Source: Escherichia coli (GTDB taxonomy: Bacteria > Pseudomonadota > Gammaproteobacteria > Enterobacterales > Enterobacteriaceae). Taken from it: DNA of 64,000 nucleotides. The position numbers and the translations under genes are program-made. The notes under the pieces are model-generated. The model saw only the letters and a list, made by a program, of their open reading frames with translations. It was not told the DNA's origin and ran no database searches. Positions 39,850 to 49,753 of this stretch are shown here, piece by piece. The stretch's first letter is position 1, and the number at the start of each line of letters is the position of its first letter. The stretch is taken from the NCBI RefSeq assembly GCF_003991155.1, contig NZ_CP031293.1. One strand, given 5' to 3'.

Positions 39850-40464
39850 TTACACAGCAACAAAAGCCATCCCTGTAAATGTCCGTCGCGGGTTGCCACG
39901 TTCAATCTGGTGATGGAACATTCGCCGCTGCGATTTCAGCACCGCGCTATTTTCCTGTTGCTGTTGTTCCAGCTTCCATGCAATCAGCAATCGCGCCAGC
40001 CGCTTGTTAGCATGCTGACTACGCTCTGACTGAACCTTCACGCTAATTCCGGTAGCCAAATGCGTGGCGCGTACCGCCGAGTCGGTTTTATTGACATGTT
40101 GACCGCCCGGCCCCGACGAACGCAGCGTCTCATAACGGATCGCGTCGGATTGCTCCTGCTCATCAGCGGTAAAACGCCCAATGCCCAGAAACCAGTTTTT
40201 GCGCCTATGATGAGGCCGATACGGACTCGGACAAATCCACTGAATAGTGCCGCACCAACTTTCGCTTAATGCCCATGCGTTATCGCCATCCAGAGAAACC
40301 AGCGCTGAACGCAGCGTGTCAGAGTAGCGGCCCGTTTCTGTTTCCAGCACCGTTACCGCGACGTCTTGTCGGGTAGCTTCTTTAATCAGCCTGTCCAGCG
40401 CCTTTTTCACTGCCAGGCAACATTCTTCCGGCCCCTGAGCTGAGGAGAGTTGTAGCAAGATCAT
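39850..40464 (-). CDS. prfH: Peptide chain release factor homolog PrfH (full length)
   Basis: [40 protein letters not shown] (GGQ motif); start taken at [11 protein letters not shown]. Confidence 0.7.
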
Positions 40465-41600
40465 CCTTTTTTCCCTCCACTGTTTTTGAGCGTTAGCACC
40501 GGACGCAGTCGCGCGACAGGAATAATTAACCCAGCCTGCACCAGACATTGCACCACGCTTTCAGCCGATTTATAAGCTTGTGGCGCTTCTTCAAAGATGA
40601 GTTGTTTATCGCGACAAATTACCCGGCTGCCAAGTTCAGTACGTGAGAGCTGCGTCGCTGTGTATTTCGCTGCCAGACGCCCTTTACACTCAGTACGTCC
40701 CCATTTGCGCCCTGCCCCATGCGCCAGCGAGTGGAGCGTTTTTTCGTTCGCAACAGGTTTAACCAGCCAGGAGTAATCGCCGCGTGAACCGGGAATAATC
40801 ACCAGACCGTTGTCATCCGGCGTGGCGCCTTTACGATGCAACCAGCCCTGTTGATCGCCGATTTGGCACGCGCTAACAAAGTTATGCGCCACATCCAGAA
40901 CCGGACTTCCGGTGGCCTTAACTTGTTGCATTATGCGCAAAGCGATCAGCTGGCGATTAATACGCGCAAACGCCAGCGCATCATCATGTTCCACAATATA
41001 ACTTAGCGCGTCGTCACTGCCTTCAGGCAAACCATGATGCGAAAACGAGGCAATATGCCGCTGTAAAATAGACTGGCCCAAACCCCGCGAGCCGCTATGA
41101 ACCAGCAGTTGCAGATGCTGCGCATCCAGACCTGTCAGTGCAAACAGTTCAGCGTCGATAATTTGATCAACTTGTTGCAGTTCTGCGAAGTGGTTTCCGC
41201 CACCGATGGAACCCAGCGAGCTGCGCCACGGATGCTGTGCTAACGCTGACGGCAGGTTTTCCTCCAGCCAGCTTTCTTCAGCAACGTCATCCAGCGCAGA
41301 TAATCGCTTTTCAAACTTATCGGCGTTGTATTTGCGCGCGAAAATATCTGTTTGCCATAGCGCCATACCGCAGCCGATATCATTGCCGACCAGTGCCGGG
41401 TAAAAACGGCCTACGGAGAAGAACGCTGCGCCAATCGGATAGCCGCGTCCGGGGTGTAAATCTGGCATCCCTACTACGCGTTGCATGTCGGGTAAATTTG
41501 CCGTGGTGTGTAATTGTTGGATCGCTAAACTCTCGATCCACAGGTCATCAGATGCGATGGTAAATACCGCATCGGATAAGGGACGAATATATTTGCCCAT
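40461..41600 (-). CDS. RtcB-family RNA ligase paralog (prfH-associated)
   Basis: About 380 aa with His/Cys-rich RtcB-like motifs; stop overlaps prfH start. Confidence 0.7.
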
Positions 41601-41790: not shown

Positions 41791-42243
41791 TTAATGTTGC
41801 GGTTTATATCGCATATAAAAATTAGTAAACCACGCTCCCCGGCATTCAACGCGCTGCTGCTTAACTGTCTGAAAACCATAACGTTCAAAAAAGGGTTTTG
41901 CGGTTATGCTGGCATCTACCGTTAGTTCGGATTCAGACTTAATCAAAGGTTTTAACAAAGCGCTGGCAACCCCACGGCGGGTGTATTCAGGGTCAACAAA
42001 TAACATATCGATATAGTGTTCAACGCAGGTAATAAAGCCGACCAGTTTTGCATTAATGACTGCAACCCGCACTTGTGATTTCGCGAGTTTCTCCTTCCAG
42101 CGAGATTCGTCAATCTGCGCCCAGGCGGCAATTTGTTGTGGTGAATAATGCTGACTGGCGGTCATCGTAACCGCTCTAAGGAAAATAGCGCATAGTTGCT
42201 GAAAATCGCCAGGCTGATAGTTTCTTATTTGTATGTTATTCAT
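41791..42243 (-). CDS. yafP: GNAT-family acetyltransferase
   Basis: 150 aa; start codon overlaps dinB stop (ATGA). Confidence 0.8.
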
Positions 42244-43295
42244 AATCCCAGCACCAGTTGTCTTTCCATTTGAGGGTCAAGTAACGTCACATGCAGCCCC
42301 ACCAGACGCACACCGCGCCCGCCACGGCGTTCATTCCAGGTTTTACGCGCGGTGGCGATTAAGTCAGCTTTATTCAGCCGCGGCCAGACGTGCTCCTGAG
42401 TGGTTTGCTGAAAATCATCAAACTTTAATTTCACCCCCTGGCGAGCAATCAGTAAATCAGGTTTTACCTTTGCCAGACGGCGTTCAAGTTCAGGATACAG
42501 CCGCTCAATAATCGCTTCACATTCAGACCAGTGATGAATATCTTCCGCCATCGTGCGTTCCACGCCGACGGATTTTCGCAACCGTTCGCTGTTAACGTCG
42601 CGCTCGTCAATCCCCTGACTACGCTCCCACAAAATGCGTCCAAATTTGCCAAAACGTTTGAGCAGAGTCACCAGATCACACTTTTGCACATCACCGCAGG
42701 TCCGCAGCCCCATCGCTTCCAGTTTTGCCGCCGAGACTTTGCCGACGCCGGGAATTTTTGCCAGCGGTAAGGTTTGCAGAAATGCCGGAACTTCTGCCGG
42801 CGTAATCACAAACTGACCGTTGGGTTTATTCATGTCGGAAGCAATTTTGGCGAGAAACTTTACCGGCGCAACGCCCGCAGATGCCGTCAGTTGCAGCTCG
42901 TTAAAGATCGTCTGGCGGATTTCCTGGGCGATGAGGGTCGCGGAGCCGTGGCAATGCACACTATCGGTGACGTCGAGATAGGCTTCATCCAGTGATAACG
43001 GTTCAATGCGCGAGGTATAGCGCGAGAAAATTTCGCGGATATGATTTGAGGCTTCTTTGTAGGCGTCAAAGCGCCCTGGAAGCAGCGTGAGATGTGGGCA
43101 TAATTTGAGCGCCATCCCTGTCGGCATAGCGCTGCGTACGCCAAATTTACGCGCGGGATAATTGGCGGTGCTGATCACCCCCCGACGTTCGCGGCTGCCG
43201 CCAATAGCAATAGGGATATCGCGCAGGGCAGGATTGTCGCGCATCTCCACCGCTGCGAAAAAGCAGTCCATATCCACATGAATGATTTTACGCAT
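42240..43295 (-). CDS. dinB: DNA polymerase IV
   Basis: 351 aa [22 protein letters not shown]... Confidence 0.9.
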
Positions 43296-43309
43296 TGCTC
43301 ACCTCTCAA

Positions 43310-43329
43310 CACTGGTAAAGTATACAGTG
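43310..43329. promoter_or_regulatory. LexA (SOS) box upstream of dinB
   Basis: CACTGGTAAAGTATACAGTG palindrome (CTG-N10-CAG) about 15 bp upstream of dinB start. Confidence 0.55.
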
Positions 43330-43365
43330 ATTTCAGGGCTTGAGAAATGCGTAAAGATTCAGCAT

Positions 43366-44256
43366 TTAACGCGTTCGCTGTGAAAGCACCTGCTGCTTAT
43401 CCAGCTTTTGCACCAGCGGCTGCACCACTTTATCCCCATGCTGACCAAAGTATTGATACAGCGTATCGGACGCGCTTTTAGTCAGCACCATAATCTCAAT
43501 GCGCCGGTTGCCCGCGCTTTGCGGATTTTTCGCGTCCAGCAGCATCTGGTCCGCCATTGCGCTCACCTGCATCACTTTATCTTCCGGCATTCCTGCCTCT
43601 TCCAGCACCCGACGAGCCGAAAGCGCGCGGTCACCCGAAAGGTTCCAGTTGTTGTAGATATTGTTTTTGTAGGCCATCGCATCGGTATGCCCGGTAATAA
43701 TAATTTTGTTATCGAGCGAGTCGAACACTGGCGCGAGCTCCACCAGCAGCGTTTTAAAGAACGGCATAATCTGCGCGCTGCCACGTTCGAACATATTGCG
43801 ATTCTGGTCGTCTTTAATCAGCACGCGTAATCCCTGCGGGACAATCTCCATCTCCAGATTCGCTTCCATATGCGCATCACGGGCAATGGTGTTGATACTG
43901 GTTGCCAGCTCACCAAGCTCGGTGGCGGATTTCTTCTTCAGCAGCGCCGTTTTCTCGTTGACGTCGCGCGCTTTTTTCTCCGTTTCTTCCGGCACCGCCA
44001 CGGTGGCAGGTTTTGACGGATGAGACGGGCTGATTTTATTTAACGGCGACAGCCCACCACCGTTAAAAATCGACTGCCCGTGCAGCGCGGCGATAATGCT
44101 TTCACGCTCGGATTTACTGACGCTGTTGACAATCAACTTTATCGTCGTCACCAAAGGGGCCGAGCGTATTTCCGAGGTTTCTGCCCGCTTTACCCTGGAC
44201 GCGATGCCCGGCAAGCAGATGGCGATTGACGCCGATCTTAACGCCGGGTTGATCAA
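43366..44256 (-). pseudogene. lafU: Flag-2 remnant: MotB-like LafU fragment (C-terminal OmpA-like domain retained)
   Basis: C-terminal ..IIITGHTDAMAYKNNIYNNWNLSGDRALSARRVLEEAGMP... MotB/OmpA-like; N-terminus lacks the expected TM anchor; frame overlaps lfhA remnant. Confidence 0.55.
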
Positions 44257-45835
44257 TCAGGCGCAGGCGCAGACCCGGCGTAAAGATGTTGCCAGCGAGG
44301 CCGATTTCTACGGCGCGATGGACGGGGCATCGAAGTTTGTGCGCGGGGATGCCATCGCCGGGATGATGATTCTGGCGATCAACCTGATCGGCGGCGTCTG
44401 TATCGGGATCTTCAAATACAACCTGAGCGCCGACGCCGCCTTCCAGCAGTATGTGCTGATGACCATCGGCGACGGGCTGGTGGCGCAGATCCCTTCCCTG
44501 CTGCTCTCCACCGCGGCGGCGATTATCGTCACCCGCGTCAGCGACAACGGCGATATCGCCCATGACGTGCGCCACCAGCTGCTGGCAAGCCCGTCGGTGC
44601 TCTACACCGCCACCGGGATCATGTTTGTGCTGGCGGTGGTGCCGGGGATGCCGCATCTGCCATTTTTGCTGTTCAGCGCCCTGCTTGGCTTTACCGGCTG
44701 GCGGATGAGCAAACGCCCGCAGGCGGCGGAGGCGGAAGAGAAAAGCCTCGAAACACTGACCCGCACCATCACCGAAACCAGCGAGCAACAGGTCAGTTGG
44801 GAAACCATTCCGCTGATCGAGCCTATCAGCTTAAGTCTCGGCTACAAGCTGGTGGCGCTGGTGGACAAAGCGCAGGGGAACCCGCTCACCCAGCGGATTC
44901 GCGGCGTGCGGCAGGTGATATCCGACGGCAACGGCGTGCTGCTACCGGAGATCCGCATTCGGGAAAACTTCCGCCTCAAGCCCAGCCAGTACGCCATTTT
45001 CATCAACGGCATTAAGGCTGATGAAGCGGATATTCCGGCGGATAAACTGATGGCCCTGCCCTCCAGTGAAACCTACGGTGAGATTGACGGCGTGCTGGGG
45101 AACGACCCGGCGTATGGGATGCCGGTCACCTGGATCCAGCCCGCGCAGAAGGCGAAGGCGCTGAATATGGGGTATCAGGTGATCGACAGCGCCAGCGTAA
45201 TTGCCACACATGTGAATAAGATTGTGCGCAGCTATATTCCTGACCTCTTTAACTATGACGATATTACGCAGTTGCATAACCGCCTGTCGTCGATGGCACC
45301 GCGCCTGGCGGAGGATTTGAGCGCGGCGCTCAATTACAGTCAGTTGCTGAAAGTGTACCGGGCGCTGCTGACCGAAGGCGTTTCCCTGCGCGATATCGTC
45401 ACCATCGCCACCGTGCTGGTTGCCAGTAGCGCGGTGACCAAAGATCATATTCTGCTGGCGGCTGATGTGCGCCTGGCGCTGCGGCGCAGCATTACCCATC
45501 CGTTCGTTCGCAAACAGGAGCTGACGGTGTATACGCTGAATAATGAGCTGGAAAATCTGCTGACCAACGTAGTGAATCAGGCGCAACAGGGCGGCAAAGT
45601 GATGCTCGACAGCGTGCCGGTGGACCCGAATATGCTTAACCAGTTCCAGAACACGATGCCGCAGGTGAAGGAGCAGATGAAAGCGGCGGGGAAAGACCCT
45701 GTGCTGCTGGTGCCTCCGCAGTTGCGCCCTTTGCTGGCGCGCTACGCAAGGTTGTTTGCGCCGGGGCTGCATGTGCTGTCGTATAACGAAGTGCCGGACG
45801 AGCTGGAGTTGAAGATTATGGGGGCGTTGATGTAG
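44096..45835 (+). pseudogene. lfhA: Flag-2 remnant: FlhA-like LfhA fragment (N-terminally truncated)
   Basis: 579 aa FlhA-like C-terminal region (..FVRGDAIAGMMILAINLIGG..) without the N-terminal membrane domain. Confidence 0.6.
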
Positions 45836-45945
45836 GTATCCGGCATCTGCGCACAACCGCCGGATGCGGCGTGAACGCCTTATCCGGCCTACCGTTCAGG
45901 CACGATTCGTAGGCTAAGCGTAAGCGCATCCGGCATCGGCGCGCA
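45836..45945. repeat. REP/BIME elements
   Basis: GCCGGATGCGGCGTGAACGCCTTATCCGGCCTAC and related REP palindromes. Confidence 0.6.
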
Positions 45946-45946
45946 A

Positions 45947-46444
45947 TTATACAATGATACGCTCCCCGGCACTAAAATCCGTTACGTCCCCCGCCCAATC
46001 GATGGGATATAACCCCTTCGCGACATCGCGATGAAACGTTGAGAATGGCCAATCACTCACTTGCTTTACCCAGCCATGTTTTACTGGATTTATATAAATA
46101 TAATCAACATGATGGCGATAGTCTTTGGTATTGCGGATGGCGTGCTCCCAAAAACGCGGTTGCCAGATATTTTGCAATCCACAAGCATGGGTGAACTGTT
46201 TTTTAATCTCCCGCCAGCGAGAGGAAAAATCATCATCGCTTTCGGGTAATGTCCAGATACAGTGCATATGCTCCGGCAAAACTACCCAGGCGTTAATTTC
46301 AAAAGGTCTGGCTCGCTTAACGTTAATAATGACTTTACGGAGCATCTGGAACTGAGCGGTCAGAAGATGGCTTCGACGATTTCGTAGGTTAACCGTGAAA
46401 AACCAGGTTCCCCCTTTGATGTAATAACGACGATATTCAGACAT
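45947..46444 (-). CDS. rayT: REP-associated tyrosine transposase
   Basis: 165 aa IS200-like TnpA fold flanked by REP sequences on both sides. Confidence 0.8.
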   Translation of the reverse strand: MSEYRRYYIKGGTWFFTVNLRNRRSHLLTAQFQMLRKVIINVKRARPFEINAWVVLPEHMHCIWTLPESDDDFSSRWREIKKQFTHACGLQNIWQPRFWEHAIRNTKDYRHHVDYIYINPVKHGWVKQVSDWPFSTFHRDVAKGLYPIDWAGDVTDFSAGERIIV

Positions 46445-46539
46445 GGCGACTCCTTTTTCTCAACGGTAAGAAGAAAAGGAAAGGTCGGCAATGAGGTGAT
46501 GGAATAACGGGAAAGCGGCTCGCATAAACGCACAGATTT

Positions 46540-46620
46540 GTAGGCATGATAAGACGCGCCAGCGTCGCATCAGGCATCGGTGCACAATTGCCGAATCCGG
46601 CGTGAACGCCCTCTCCGTCC
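46540..46620. repeat. REP elements
   Basis: GCATCAGGCATCGGTGCACAATTGCCGAATCCGGCGTGAACGCC REP-type palindromes. Confidence 0.55.
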
Positions 46621-47369
46621 TACAAAATCGTCTCTTCCGTCAAAATCCGCCGCGCGCCTAAAAAATGATCCTGCCAGAAAGGTTCAGCTAACCGGCTTAT
46701 CCGAATGGTTTCGCCGGTACGTGGTGACTCGATAAACTGACCGTCTCCCAGATACACCCCCATATGATCGGCTATCTCGCGGCTGTGAATATGGAAAAAC
46801 AGCAAATCTCCCCGGCGCAGGTCGTTGTTCGCCACAATCGTTGCCCGATGGTAGTGATACATCTCATTGGCTGTGCGCGGGAGCTTCGCCTCAAGGATCT
46901 TGTTGTAGGCATAAAAAACCAACCCGCTACAGTCGAAGCCTTTATCGGGCCGCGTGCCGCCCCAGACATAAGGCTTGCCAAGCTGCTGCTCCAGGCGGTG
47001 AATCGCCACTTCGGTGATGTTATGCAGGTGATCGCTGCTTAAAAAGTGGTTGTTTTCCGCCAGCGCCTGCCAGCGTCTGTCACTCGCCTTGAGCGGCGCA
47101 GGAAACCATTCTGGATGCTGTTTTATCTGCTCCCGGTTGTGCTGGCGTAGCGCCCTTCTGCTTTCGGCATTGCCTTCCACAATATAGCTGGCCTGTTTTT
47201 TCAGATGGGTTTGGTACTGTTTTAATAAACGCGCACGGTTTTGCATCCGCTGGCGGGCGGCGTAGCTGAAAGAGATATGTGATGTGGTGGCGCTGGCAAA
47301 TGAAGAAAACGGCAAGCAAAGCAACAGTAATCCCGACAACACAAAAGAGGGAATCGACGGCAAAGACAT
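46620..47369 (-). CDS. yafL: NlpC/P60-family lipoprotein peptidase
   Basis: ..GKPYVWGGTRPDKGFDCSGLV.. NlpC/P60 catalytic Cys motif; start taken at MSLPSIPSFVL. Confidence 0.8.
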   Translation of the reverse strand: MSLPSIPSFVLSGLLLLCLPFSSFASATTSHISFSYAARQRMQNRARLLKQYQTHLKKQASYIVEGNAESRRALRQHNREQIKQHPEWFPAPLKASDRRWQALAENNHFLSSDHLHNITEVAIHRLEQQLGKPYVWGGTRPDKGFDCSGLVFYAYNKILEAKLPRTANEMYHYHRATIVANNDLRRGDLLFFHIHSREIADHMGVYLGDGQFIESPRTGETIRISRLAEPFWQDHFLGARRILTEETIL

Positions 47370-47546
47370 TCTCAATAATGGCTGGTCATGCATTGATGTT
47401 GCAGTGTATCCCGGCCCGTACCTGAACAAACTTAATAAACCATTATTATAAAATTAATAAATATATTTCAGTTAATTATGTAAAAACATCCGTTTATTAA
47501 ATTACTCATGGATTGTCGCTGTTGCTCATTTGAGCTACAATTCAAG

Positions 47547-47578: not shown

Positions 47579-47839
47579 ATGGCTGCTAACGCGTTTGTTC
47601 GCGCCCGAATCGATGAAGATCTGAAGAATCAGGCGGCGGACGTACTGGCCGGGATGGGGCTGACCATCTCTGACCTGGTTCGCATAACCCTCACAAAGGT
47701 CGCGCGTGAAAAGGCATTGCCGTTTGATTTACGCGAGCCTAATCAATTAACTATTCAATCAATCAAAAACAGCGAAGCTGGCGTTGGTATTCATAAGGCC
47801 AAAGACGCCGATGATTTATTTGATAAATTAGGAATTTAA
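47579..47839 (+). CDS. dinJ: DinJ antitoxin
   Basis: 86 aa MAANAFVRARIDEDLKNQAADVLAGMGLTISDLVRITL... Confidence 0.85.
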   Translation: MAANAFVRARIDEDLKNQAADVLAGMGLTISDLVRITLTKVAREKALPFDLREPNQLTIQSIKNSEAGVGIHKAKDADDLFDKLGI

Positions 47840-47841
47840 AT

Positions 47842-48118
47842 ATGATTCAAAGGGATATTGAATACTCGGGACAATTTTCAAAGGATGTAAAACTTGCACA
47901 AAAGCGTCATAAGGATATGAATAAATTGAAATATCTTATGACGCTCTTATCAATAATACTTTACTGCTTCCAGCTGTTTATAAAGACCACCCGCTGCAAG
48001 GTTCATGGAAAGGTTATCGCGATGCTCATGTCGAACCGGACTGGATCCTGATTTACAAACTTACCGATAAACTTTTACGATTTGAGAGAACTGGAACTCA
48101 CGCGGCGCTATTTGGGTA
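47842..48118 (+). pseudogene. yafQ: YafQ toxin gene with apparent 1-bp frameshift
   Basis: Frame 1 gives MIQRDIEYSGQFSKDVKLAQKRHKDMNKLKYLMTLL then aberrant tail to stop at 48048; +1 frame from about 47951 gives NNTL.LPAVYKDHPLQGSWKGYRDAHVEPDWILIYKLTDKLLRFERTGTHAALFG* ending 48118. Confidence 0.6.
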
Positions 48119-48274
48119 AAGCCCGCTGCCGATGAAATTTGTAAACCCTGCGCCGACAGGCTTGCGTAAAACTCTTTTGGTGATAATGTGAGCCTTCCAA
48201 ATCCAGACTATTCCGATTTGGGATCCATTTTGCCGTCCTGGCGTGTGTAACCGTTTTATCAAGGAATAAGCAGT

Positions 48275-49015
48275 ATGCGTAAAATCGCATTAATTCTTGC
48301 GATGTTGTTGATCCCGTGCGTTTCGTTTGCCGGTTTGCTGGGCAGCAGTAGCTCGACCACGCCAGTGAGCAAAGAGTATAAGCAGCAGTTGATGGGATCC
48401 CCTGTCTACATCCAGATCTTCAAGGAAGAACGTACGCTCGATCTCTACGTCAAAATGGGCGAGCAATATCAACTGCTCGACAGCTATAAAATCTGTAAAT
48501 ATTCCGGCGGCTTAGGGCCAAAACAGCGTCAGGGCGATTTCAAAAGCCCGGAAGGGTTTTATAGCGTCCAGCGTAATCAGTTAAAACCAGACAGCCGTTA
48601 CTACAAAGCGATTAATATTGGATTCCCCAATGCCTATGACCGTGCGCATGGTTATGAAGGGAAATATCTGATGATCCACGGCGATTGTGTTTCCATCGGC
48701 TGCTACGCGATGACCAATCAGGGTATTGATGAGATCTTCCAGTTCGTTACTGGTGCGCTGGTGTTTGGTCAGCCGAGCGTGCAAGTGAGTATTTACCCGT
48801 TCCGCATGACCGACGCCAATATGAAGCGCCATAAATATTCCAACTTTAAGGACTTCTGGGAGCAACTGAAGCCGGGCTACGACTACTTTGAGCAAACCCG
48901 TAAGCCACCGACCGTTTCTGTGGTCAATGGCCGTTACGTGGTCAGCAAGCCGTTAAGCCACGAAGTTGTGCAGCCACAGCTGGCATCAAACTACACGCTC
49001 CCCGAGGCAAAATAA
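48275..49015 (+). CDS. yafK: L,D-transpeptidase-fold periplasmic protein
   Basis: 246 aa with signal peptide; YkuD-like HGDCVSIGC catalytic motif. Confidence 0.85.
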
Positions 49016-49753
49016 GCGCCATTCGCCTGGCATAATCTTTTGCCAGGTTTCATTGCCCGTCAGCGGCTGTGTTGCAATCACCGTGACCACATCATTCGGT
49101 GTGGTCTGCGAGCTGAAGTCGATTTCCACATCCTGATCCAGCAACGTTGCCACGCCAAACGGCGCGCGGCGGGTGATCCAGTGTAAATTAGTCGAGCAAT
49201 ACGCCATTACATAGCGTCCGTCAGAAAGCAGCATGTTGAAAACGCCCTTCTGCCGCAGTTCATCCGCCAGTGAGGCGATATATTTAAACACTGCCGCCAT
49301 ATTGCCCGGTGTGCGCGGGTAACGCTGCGTTAATTTATGCAGGAGCCAGCAGAAGGCTTTTTCGCTGTCGGTTTCACCGACCGGGCGGAAGTTGCCGGTT
49401 TCCAGTGATTTGTACCCCGTCAGTTGCCCGTTATGGGCATAAGTCCAGTTACGTCCCCATAACTCGCGGGTAAACGGGTGAGTATTTTCCAGCGCCACCT
49501 CGCCCCGATTGGCCTGGCGAATATGAGCCACAACCGAACAGGATTTTATCGGGTAGTCCTGGACAAGTTTGGCGATGGGGGAATTAAAGCTGGGTTGTGG
49601 ATCTTTAAATGTGCGACAGCCTTTACCTTCGTAAAAGGTGATGCCCCAGCCATCTTTATGTGGCCCGGTTCCACCACCACGCTGTACAAGCCCGGTGAAA
49701 CTAAAGCAGATATCAGTAGGGACGTTGGCGCTCATCCCGAGCAATTCGCACAT
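48986..49753 (-). CDS. yafJ: Class II glutamine amidotransferase-like protein
   Basis: Start at [19 protein letters not shown] (N-terminal Cys nucleophile). Confidence 0.85.

Follow-up and report, generated by a model that had tools for sequence, protein, structure and literature searches.

A Flag-2 deletion scar of Escherichia coli with lfhA and lafU remnants in open reading frames

Positions 43366 to 45835 of the window (the whole stretch of 64,000 nucleotides of E. coli DNA that was analysed) form the Flag-2 deletion scar of E. coli, known from K-12 as the pseudogene pair lfhA'/lafU' (fhiA/mbhA). The explanation given here for the feature as a whole, with one deletion, functionless stumps, frames refreshed by intact alleles and an inherited junction, is very probably correct. 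The scar itself is an already described, textbook remnant. The lfhA and lafU pseudogenes, named fhiA and mbhA respectively, have been reported as the two terminal Flag-2 remnants in K-12 and B (PMC3032704), and passages of PMC6993521, citing Ren et al. 2005, describe an en bloc lfhA-lafU deletion with short direct repeats at its ends.

Two open reading frames were present in this region, one on the plus strand (44096..45835, 579 aa, ATG start) and one on the minus strand (44256..43366, 296 aa, TTG start). The plus-strand frame matched the Pfam FHIPEP family with an E value of 2.5e-189 over profile positions 99-656 of 657, and the minus-strand frame matched the Pfam OmpA domain with an E value of 1.3e-14, so neither is a chance ORF. 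Positions and Pfam matches agree with the sequence-only reading, which had described a truncated FlhA-like frame on the plus strand and a MotB-like frame on the minus strand in divergent orientation. The RefSeq labels for the identical sequence in E. coli 2016C-3878 are 'flagellar biosynthesis protein FlhA, incomplete, missing N-terminus' and 'lafU'. According to the ORF list and the annotation, the left chromosomal flank of the Flag-2 site is dinB (42240..43295, minus strand), and the right flank is rayT (yafM; 45947..46444, minus strand), which encodes a REP-associated tyrosine transposase. REP/BIME-like palindromic repeats, found at a median of 32 places per genome, occupy positions 45838..45946 between the lfhA' stop codon and rayT. 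In the annotations of 2016C-3878, K-12 and EC974 this site between dinB and rayT/yafL is where Flag-2-positive strains hold the complete cluster.

In EC974 the intact locus, flanked by rayT and dinB, has lfhA (697 aa) and lafU (307 aa) at its two ends. Strains with an intact locus have about 37 kb of lateral-flagellar genes between dinB and rayT, with the terminal lafU reading outward to dinB and the terminal lfhA to rayT. The earlier reading had suggested E. coli 042 as an intact reference; EC974 was used in its place, together with six other intact alleles. By blastn and junction alignment the window differed from EC974 by a single deletion of 37,317 bp. The junction could be mapped, both frames were collinear with the ends of the cluster, and both stumps mapped to its terminal genes, in keeping with the earlier interpretation of the region as a Flag-2 remnant. 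A single illegitimate recombination event with an overlap of 2-3 nt, in this case ATC, took out all that lies between LafU codon 52 and LfhA codon 131. It left two 3' stumps back to back, without operon promoters, start codons or N-terminal membrane segments.

The lafU' remnant (43366..44134, minus strand) comprises LafU codons 53-307 and the stop codon (43366-43368), and its ungapped blastn match to EC974 lafU ends at 44134-44137. What remains of this MotB-type stator is its periplasmic linker and its OmpA-like peptidoglycan-binding domain. The deletion took the first 52 codons, with the cytoplasmic tail, the TM helix and most of the MotB_plug domain, and Pfam detected OmpA alone in the remnant as opposed to MotB_plug (19-70) and OmpA in intact LafU. 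The lfhA' remnant (44132..45835, plus strand), delimited by blastn to EC974 lfhA, comprises LfhA codons 131-697 (567 codons) and the stop codon. It spans mid-TM4, the FHIPEP loop, TM5-8 and the cytoplasmic domain with the native 3' end, and the first 130 codons, i.e. TM1-3 and half of TM4, were deleted; in the intact protein the FHIPEP match covered profile positions 1-656. In the EC974 annotation the promoters of the Flag-2 operons fall within the deleted DNA. A promoter consensus scan of the scar gave only weak 9/12 matches, one with a -10 hexamer overlapping the ATG at 44096, and an Rfam search found nothing in the scar itself.

The deletion junction was placed at 44132..44134 by a three-way alignment with the intact lafU and lfhA sides, the 3-nt overlap ATC being common to both parental sites. 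It joins LafU W52|I53 (antisense) to LfhA I130|I131 and sits within an imperfect 9/13 direct repeat (CTGnTGAnnATC). Apart from this in-register match, no extended homology was found at the breakpoints. The microhomology is ordinary, as 3,287 other pairs of lafU and lfhA positions are as good or better, and exact repeats of 9-11 nt occur elsewhere. Inspection by eye, without statistics, showed a palindrome of 10 bp (GATGATCATC) on the lfhA side and, on the lafU side, an imperfect inverted repeat of 6 bp; both are probably chance features.

A contiguous scar was present in 4071 of 5426 complete E. coli genomes and a full-length lfhA in roughly 1280 others; 43 genomes had no lfhA match. The junction and the 40 bp upstream of it were identical in nine of nine scar alleles from across the identity range of E. 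coli (K-12, BL21, O157, 536 and five more). Although the microhomology is unremarkable and many sites are equal or better, essentially a single junction type exists in E. coli, which argues for a single origin of the junction. Scar and intact alleles were interspersed, with mosaic haplotypes and zero fixed differences between the two classes. On the lfhA side K-12 (scar) and E1620 (intact) differed by a single nucleotide in 1704, and on the lafU side BL21 (scar) was nearly equal to E1620. The Hudson-Kaplan minimum number of recombination events (Rm) among 16 alleles was 56, and all four combinations of junction state with the SNP at 44143, 9 bp from the junction, occurred. No hitch-hiking footprint was seen at the junction, K-12 and the window differing 9 bp to its right and 116 bp to its left.

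Whether scar alleles were compared with each other, intact alleles with each other or one class with the other, the dN/dS ratio was about 0.03. For the window against K-12 it was 0.037 for lfhA' and 0.046 for lafU', at dS values of 0.1-0.2. There were no stops or indels in nine sequenced scar alleles and no net indel in lfhA' in 44 evenly sampled scar genomes. Private variants in the scar alleles of the 16-allele sample were 23 synonymous and 1 nonsynonymous, although singletons in this sample are not usable as young mutations, because only 7 of the roughly 1280 intact alleles were included. The window allele belongs to a clonal group of 41 complete genomes, including 2016C-3878. All 41 genomes at 99% identity or more were 100% identical to the window over 2470 bp, and a test for selection on young mutations in this scar-only clone gave no result because there was no variation to score. 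Decayed alleles also exist. A deletion of 22 bp shifts the frame in the scar of the E. albertii type strain, truncated E. coli-type lfhA' variants of 455-564 aa occur, and some metagenomic scar alleles are frameshifted. Two of the metagenomic alleles carry 5-bp deletions that were found in none of the 5426 complete genomes; these two are rare or artefactual, and metagenomic frameshifts gauge decay only in part. Another metagenomic allele (L044, coverage 0.78) was rejected as evidence of decay and attributed to sequencing noise. A simple pseudogene model would predict more damage to the frames than the scar alleles show, and this counts against the best explanation.

The same junction was found in E. 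coli, E. albertii, another Escherichia lineage, Citrobacter, Kluyvera and Atlantibacter, and further in an H16N7-like lineage, a metagenomic lineage and Enterobacter sp. Ap-916 (Cedecea-like). At least nine enterobacterial lineages carry it, each within native flanking sequence, and LfhA identity goes down to 70%. The remnant pair was found by the present scans in Escherichia, Citrobacter, Kluyvera, Atlantibacter and Cedecea-like lineages, and passages of De Maayer et al. 2020 (PMC6993521) give an en bloc lfhA-lafU deletion in 531 of 4028 Enterobacterales strains. Scar and intact alleles differed at 6 of 1704 positions in the H16N7-like pair and at 16 of 1704 in the Atlantibacter pair, mostly at synonymous sites. 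No close intact Kluyvera allele was found in a protein database clustered at 90% identity, in which one could be hidden. Between genera dN/dS was 0.02-0.04 at saturated dS, and the 567-codon frame was open in Kluyvera, Citrobacter, Atlantibacter and two more lineages. The start codon of lfhA' is not conserved: relative to the junction, it is an ATG at 12 codons upstream in E. coli, a GTG at 4 codons downstream in Citrobacter and a TTG at 107 codons upstream in Kluyvera. No zone of raised between-genus similarity was detected near the junction, and third-position identity was flat outward from it. The lafU-side DNA beside the junction differed between lineages (gctgttgacaATC versus accgcccccataATT), and the Citrobacter locus had no rayT.

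The best reading of these data is an old junction, identical by descent and refreshed through allelic recombination with intact alleles. The stumps would do nothing, and their well-preserved frames would reflect no function of their own. Scar and intact locus would be alleles of one chromosomal site that recombine freely, and the scar flanks would have been overwritten repeatedly by sequence evolved under selection in intact flagellar clusters. Equal dN/dS in both classes, the lack of fixed differences, the mosaic haplotypes and the Rm of 56 point to gene flow rather than function. The junction would have been inherited by descent, possibly also through transfer between species. With native flanks in at least nine lineages, identity by descent needs a presence/absence polymorphism that has persisted for a very long time, or else inter-genus transfer with the donor flanks fully erased.

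It is unlikely, but possible, that the junction arose instead by recurrent precise excision, in which the cluster of about 37 kb was lost repeatedly, always from LafU W52|I53 to LfhA I130|I131, with separate losses in Escherichia, Citrobacter, Kluyvera, Atlantibacter and Cedecea-like bacteria. A site-specific or hot-spot process could be responsible, each scar allele then being a young derivative of the local intact allele. This would account for open frames and low dN/dS without function, and it fits the occurrence of the same junction in the nine listed lineages, each in its own sequence, the flat between-genus similarity around the junction and the near-identity of scar and intact alleles up to the junction within lineages (1, 6 and 16 differences in 1704 for K-12/E1620, the H16N7-like pair and Atlantibacter, respectively). 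The overlap, however, is just 2-3 nt and statistically ordinary, and the pervasive allelic recombination (Rm of 56) would suffice to make the flanks of scar and intact alleles similar. Since the lafU-side DNA at the junction is not conserved between lineages, a sequence-specific recombinase would have had no conserved site to recognise, and no recombinase gene is annotated within the intact cluster of EC974. On these grounds (no cluster recombinase, the 2-3-nt overlap and the unconserved lafU-side DNA) the scar does not fit a site-specifically excised element of the skin/nifD type or an integrase-borne island, although a recombinase encoded at another place in the genome may have acted. rayT was ruled out as the deletion agent because the Citrobacter scar locus lacks it, and this absence also speaks against recurrent excision.

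Domestication of the truncated genes under purifying selection, as an N-truncated FlhA-like membrane/cytoplasmic protein and a periplasmic OmpA-like domain of LafU, is improbable. The dN/dS ratios of 0.037 and 0.046 between the window and K-12 and of 0.02-0.04 between genera, with the 567-codon frame open, count in its favour, and the sampled complete E. coli genomes were free of disruptions, while the neighbouring rayT had internal stops in two of them. But dN/dS is equally low in intact alleles, with which the scar alleles are interspersed, and the constraint may thus be borrowed from them. The start codon of the lfhA frame differs between genera, the native operon promoters are deleted, and TM1-3 and half of TM4 of FlhA as well as the TM helix and plug of MotB are missing. 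LafU' has no evident export signal, as judged by reading the sequence without a predictor. Frameshifted and truncated scar alleles exist, and the 43 of 5426 genomes without an lfhA match also argue against a selected function.

The sequence-only reading had reported an overlap of about 160 bp (44096-44256) between the two frames. The overlap holds for the ORFs, where it measures 161 bp, but not for the gene remnants: homology to lafU stops at 44134 and homology to lfhA starts at 44132, so the remnants only abut. The ORFs overlap because each frame continues across the junction into the antisense strand of the other stump until it meets a stop. The lfhA frame runs through 44096..44131 (plus strand), 12 codons (MLSRSDLLTLLT) that are the antisense of lafU codons; its ATG at 44096 arises incidentally from lafU Ser-Ile codons, and the scars of Citrobacter and Kluyvera have no ATG there. 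The 579-codon frame of K-12 also begins with MLSRSDLLTLLT. The lafU frame runs through 44135..44256 (minus strand), about 41 codons of lfhA antisense, and NCBI PGAP places the lafU start at a GTG at 44151.

A genuine pair of overlapping divergent genes is almost certainly the wrong description, even though both the window and K-12 have the 161-bp overlap of two long ORFs and some overlapping-gene catalogues treat <fhiA, mbhA> in this way, PMC1940028 listing the pair as conserved overlapping genes in E. coli and Shigella: the shared segments are antisense of the partner stump without homology of their own, PGAP starts differ and cut the overlap to 35 bp, and the first stop sets the length, the lfhA frame being open upstream for 12 codons in E. 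coli, 18 in Citrobacter, 84 in E. albertii and 124 in Kluyvera. A true overlapping pair was rejected, as the shared parts are not conserved coding sequence and their lengths and start codons vary between genera.

The feature of the window matters little in itself, since three quarters of E. coli genomes carry this remnant. For annotation, it should be entered as two pseudogene fragments and not as overlapping genes. It also calls for caution in pseudogene detection: a dN/dS of about 0.03 with intact frames is not proof of function if the allele recombines with an intact, selected copy. One junction in at least nine lineages, with flanks diverged to saturation, points either to a balanced presence/absence polymorphism of a whole flagellar system that is very old or to precise excision, and either origin would be informative on how bacteria gain and lose costly, immunogenic organelles. 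Recurrent excision, if true, would mean that the scar is no one-off accident inherited within E. coli, and it would explain the lineage-own sequence and the open frames.

K-12 lfhA' (fhiA, b0229) and lafU' (mbhA, b0230) lie, as in the window, between dinB and rayT. The K-12 MG1655 scar matches the window nucleotide for nucleotide at the junction and over 40 bp upstream, and it has frames of 579 and 296 codons; the 579 codons given for the K-12 lfhA fragment in the sequence-only reading proved right, MG1655 having the identical 579-codon frame. The window and K-12 alleles are 95.1% (lfhA') and 97.3% (lafU') identical, and the differences are nearly all synonymous. The neighbourhoods differ in that the window lacks the yafNO pair, has intact rtcB and prfH genes and carries a frameshift in yafQ. 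The intact Flag-2 locus of E. coli (for example in 042, W and EC974) shares its flanking genes with the window, and the stumps align collinearly with the 3' parts of its terminal genes lafU and lfhA. About 37.3 kb of the intact locus are absent from the window, namely lfhA codons 1-130, lfhB, lfiRQPNM, lafK, lfiE-J, cargo genes, lfgN-L, lafW, lafZ, lafA-T and lafU codons 1-52. A functional FlhA/FHIPEP export gate has a complete N-terminal transmembrane region, with the profile matched from position 1, whereas lfhA' is without that region. A functional MotB/LafU stator subunit has an N-terminal TM helix and plug, whereas lafU' begins at residue 53 and MotB_plug was undetected in it. Because these N-terminal membrane parts are missing, neither stump can be filed as a functional member of the FlhA or MotB/LafU family. 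The deletions in the passages of De Maayer et al. 2020 (PMC6993521) left the same kind of remnant pair, chiefly in taxa that also hold complete Flag-2 loci; the same-codon junction across genera and the open frames at a dN/dS of about 0.03 are absent from those passages and are established by the present comparisons.

The ORF listing placed a 579-aa frame with an ATG start on the plus strand (lfhA', 44096..45835) and a 296-aa frame with a TTG start on the minus strand (lafU', 44256..43366); the two are divergently oriented and have 161 bp in common. In Pfam the lfhA' ORF matched FHIPEP (E=2.5e-189), beginning only at profile position 99 of 657, and the lafU' ORF contained an OmpA-like domain alone (E=1.3e-14), as the sequence-only reading had placed and described them. 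By megablast against 5,426 complete E. coli genomes, strain 2016C-3878 matched the window at 100% and K-12 at about 95.7% identity; 41 complete genomes were 100% identical to the window across 43366-45835. The RefSeq gene order of 2016C-3878 and K-12, in window orientation (the reverse complement of the usual K-12 orientation), is pepD ... dinB(-) lafU(-), an incomplete FlhA missing its N-terminus (+), rayT(-) yafL(-) dinJ yafQ dpaA.

In E. coli EC974, the reference for the intact locus, a complete lateral-flagellar (Flag-2) cluster is annotated at the same chromosomal site, in the order rayT, lfhA (697 aa), lfhB, lfiRQPNM, a sigma-54 activator gene, lfiE-J, cargo genes, lfgN-L, lafA-T, lafU (307 aa) and dinB. 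Aligned to this locus by blastn, the window gave two collinear blocks, the dinB/lafU end matching window 43000-44137 and the lfhA/rayT end 44123-45948. As both stumps are collinear with the ends of the intact locus, their earlier interpretation as a Flag-2 deletion scar was correct, and this identification is made with very high confidence. In a three-way alignment the last lafU-side match was at 44134 and the first lfhA-side match at 44132; the overlap, ATC, is common to both sides and lies within an imperfect 9/13 direct repeat. The junction fuses LafU W52|I53 (antisense) to LfhA I130|I131 at the protein level, and 37,317 bp of the EC974 locus are absent from the scar. The LfhA remnant comprises 567 codons, beginning mid-TM4, and the LafU remnant 255 codons, its first residue lying just past the TM helix. 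Intact LfhA matches FHIPEP at 1-656 and intact LafU carries MotB_plug and OmpA (Pfam); the stumps lack these N-terminal parts.

The gene overlap is artefactual, produced by calling ORFs over the deletion junction. The 579-codon frame opens with 12 codons (MLSRSDLLTLLT) that are lafU codons in antisense, the ATG at 44096 being derived from lafU Ser-Ile codons, and the 296-codon frame opens with 41 codons that are lfhA codons in antisense. How far the lfhA frame is open upstream of the junction varies by lineage: 12, 18, 84 or 124 codons. The Citrobacter and Kluyvera scars have no ATG at the position equivalent to 44096, and PGAP (NCBI) starts lafU at GTG 44151 and the FlhA fragment at 44117. 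The antisense run-through, the lineage-dependent frame length and the differing PGAP starts indicate that the "overlapping genes" are run-through across the junction. Overlapping-gene listings for E. coli and Shigella nonetheless include the pair, which is named fhiA/mbhA in K-12 (PMC1940028).

The scar of K-12 is identical at the junction and over the 40 bp upstream of it, and its two frames likewise have 579 and 296 codons, in agreement with the K-12 length of 579 codons given in the sequence-only reading. The junction was common to all nine scar alleles compared (window, K-12, BL21, O157:H7 JEONG-1266, 536, TB354, HCM-24C-3, MS1494 and T309), and a contiguous scar was present in 4071 of the 5426 complete genomes (75%). 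A full-length lfhA query was covered to at least 80% in 5352 of these genomes and had no match in 43, so that about 1280 genomes carry a full-length lfhA. The scar is real and already known. Ren et al. in 2005 reportedly described fhiA-mbhA as "adjacent, divergent, promoterless" remnants of a 44-gene cluster. The terminal Flag-2 remnants in K-12 and B are fhiA and mbhA (PMC3032704), and a further paper (PMC6993521) gives the lfhA-lafU deletion, bounded by short direct repeats, for 76 of 76 Flag-2-negative strains among 100 E. coli and for 531 of 4028 Enterobacterales.

Both stumps look selected, an unexpected property. Between window and K-12, lfhA' had a dS of 0.20, a dN of 0.007 and a dN/dS of 0.037, and lafU' a dN/dS of 0.046, comparable to dinB and yafL. 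No stop or indel was found over 1704 nt in any of the nine scar alleles, at divergences up to 6%, and none of the 44 scar rows from an evenly spaced genome sample had a net indel (query span equal to subject span). When the nine scar alleles were compared with seven intact alleles, the two classes were interspersed in the tree, and dN/dS was equal within and between them (scar-scar 0.030, intact-intact 0.029, mixed 0.028). Zero sites were fixed between the classes, and the haplotypes were mosaic. On the lfhA side K-12 differed from the intact allele of strain E1620 at 1 of 1704 nt, and on the lafU side BL21 was nearly identical to E1620. At least 56 recombination events were required, and all four combinations of junction state with a SNP 9 bp from the junction (44143) were found. 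The interspersion, equal dN/dS, mosaics and recombination indicate that scar and intact locus are alleles of one site with freely recombining flanks. The constraint on the stumps is thus probably borrowed, the variation seen there having been filtered in intact clusters. This pseudogene-that-looks-selected effect is of residual interest and was not found stated in the literature examined.

Broken alleles do occur. The scar of the E. albertii type strain carries a 22-bp frameshifting deletion, metagenomic scar contigs carry 1-bp and 5-bp deletions, and E. coli-type variants cut short at 455-564 aa are numerous in the protein database. Both 5-bp deletions were absent from all complete E. coli genomes, which suggests that decay is rare. 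Some E. coli-type scar ORFs had in-frame internal duplications (626 and 597 aa versus 579). LfhA variants of the intact type, shortened to 573-671 aa, were also present in the protein database, so intact loci decay too. In a scar contig from a brown-bear metagenome, lafU' homology broke off some 19 bp short of the junction on its left side (window equivalent 44113); the lafU stump has thus been replaced or lost in a second event.

A wobble-tolerant, junction-spanning pattern, applied to one genome per species, found the same junction in E. albertii (91% identity), a second Escherichia lineage, Kluyvera ascorbata (79%) and Citrobacter sp. MGH106 (80%); a metagenome scan added more Kluyvera-like and Citrobacter-like copies. 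The 567-codon frame is open in the Kluyvera and Citrobacter scars, with a dN/dS of 0.02-0.04 against E. coli and saturated dS. Protein searches and inspection of the corresponding contigs revealed the fusion in four further lineages: Atlantibacter subterranea, an H16N7-like lineage, a metagenomic lineage (74% aa identity) and Enterobacter sp. Ap-916 (Cedecea-like, 70% aa). All four have the form "...antisense LafU | I-N-F-(I/V)-V-V-T-K-G", with LafU' starting at the I53 equivalent and an overlap of ATC or ATT. Each non-E. coli scar is embedded in its own lineage's sequence, with partly different neighbouring genes. Scar and intact alleles differed at 6 of 1704 nt in the H16N7-like lineage (5 in synonymous codons) and at 16 of 1704 nt in Atlantibacter (13 in synonymous codons), and no zone of raised similarity was seen near the junction between genera. 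This junction common to several genera is also of residual interest and was not found stated in the literature examined. E. coli-type scars with about 95% identity to the window, on two contigs from MAGs labelled Clostridiales and Collinsella, are most likely E. coli contamination.

The best reading, held with moderate confidence, is a population-level account of descent plus homogenisation. The junction would be identical by descent, as an old presence/absence polymorphism whose spread interspecies transfer may have aided, and recombination with intact alleles would homogenise the scar flanks within each species. Each non-E. coli scar is embedded in its own lineage's sequence, with partly different neighbouring genes. 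Scar and intact alleles differed at 6 of 1704 nt in the H16N7-like lineage (5 in synonymous codons) and at 16 of 1704 nt in Atlantibacter (13 in synonymous codons), and no zone of raised similarity was seen near the junction between genera. Production of the junction by precise recurrent excision is considered unlikely. A DNA-sequence-specific recombinase is disfavoured by the very different lafU-side junction DNA of the lineages; none is annotated within the EC974 cluster, and the Citrobacter scar locus, which lacks rayT, also counts against it. A function for the stumps is disfavoured by the lack of a conserved start codon, the lost N-terminal parts, the broken alleles and the equal constraint on intact alleles. 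Chance recurrence is excluded, as nothing sets the microhomology apart: of 1.93 million lafU x lfhA position pairs, 3,287 do equally well or better, and there are exact repeats of 9-11 nt elsewhere.

The interval from lfhA' to rayT (45838-45946) holds REP/BIME-like palindromic repeats, which account for the many extra BLAST places per genome. Between rayT and yafL an Rfam naRNA4 (RF02564) match at 46543-46620 scored 60.4 bits, barely over the gathering score. The rayT gene beside the scar has internal stops in O157:H7 JEONG-1266 and MS1494 and is wholly missing in HCM-24C-3 and T309; the adjoining scar "pseudogene" frames of these four strains are open. Synonymous divergence between window and K-12 was 0.20-0.29 in dinB, lfhA', rayT and yafL (42240-47429) and 0.075-0.09 in dpaA and yafJ a few kb off (48275-49753), a contrast that marks the surroundings of the Flag-2 site as a local block of mosaic polymorphism of unusual depth. 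The antitoxin gene dinJ (47579-47839) is intact; yafQ (47842-48119), the toxin gene, is frameshifted, its ORF ending after 69 aa. On the other side, dinB (42240-43295, minus strand) is directly followed by yafP (41791-42243, minus strand), which overlaps it by 4 nt. In K-12 the yafN-yafO toxin-antitoxin pair lies between the two; it is missing in the window and EC974. An RtcB-family RNA ligase gene (40461-41600) and prfH (39850-40464), both on the minus strand, are intact in the window strain, whereas K-12 and EC974 have them only as truncated fragments.
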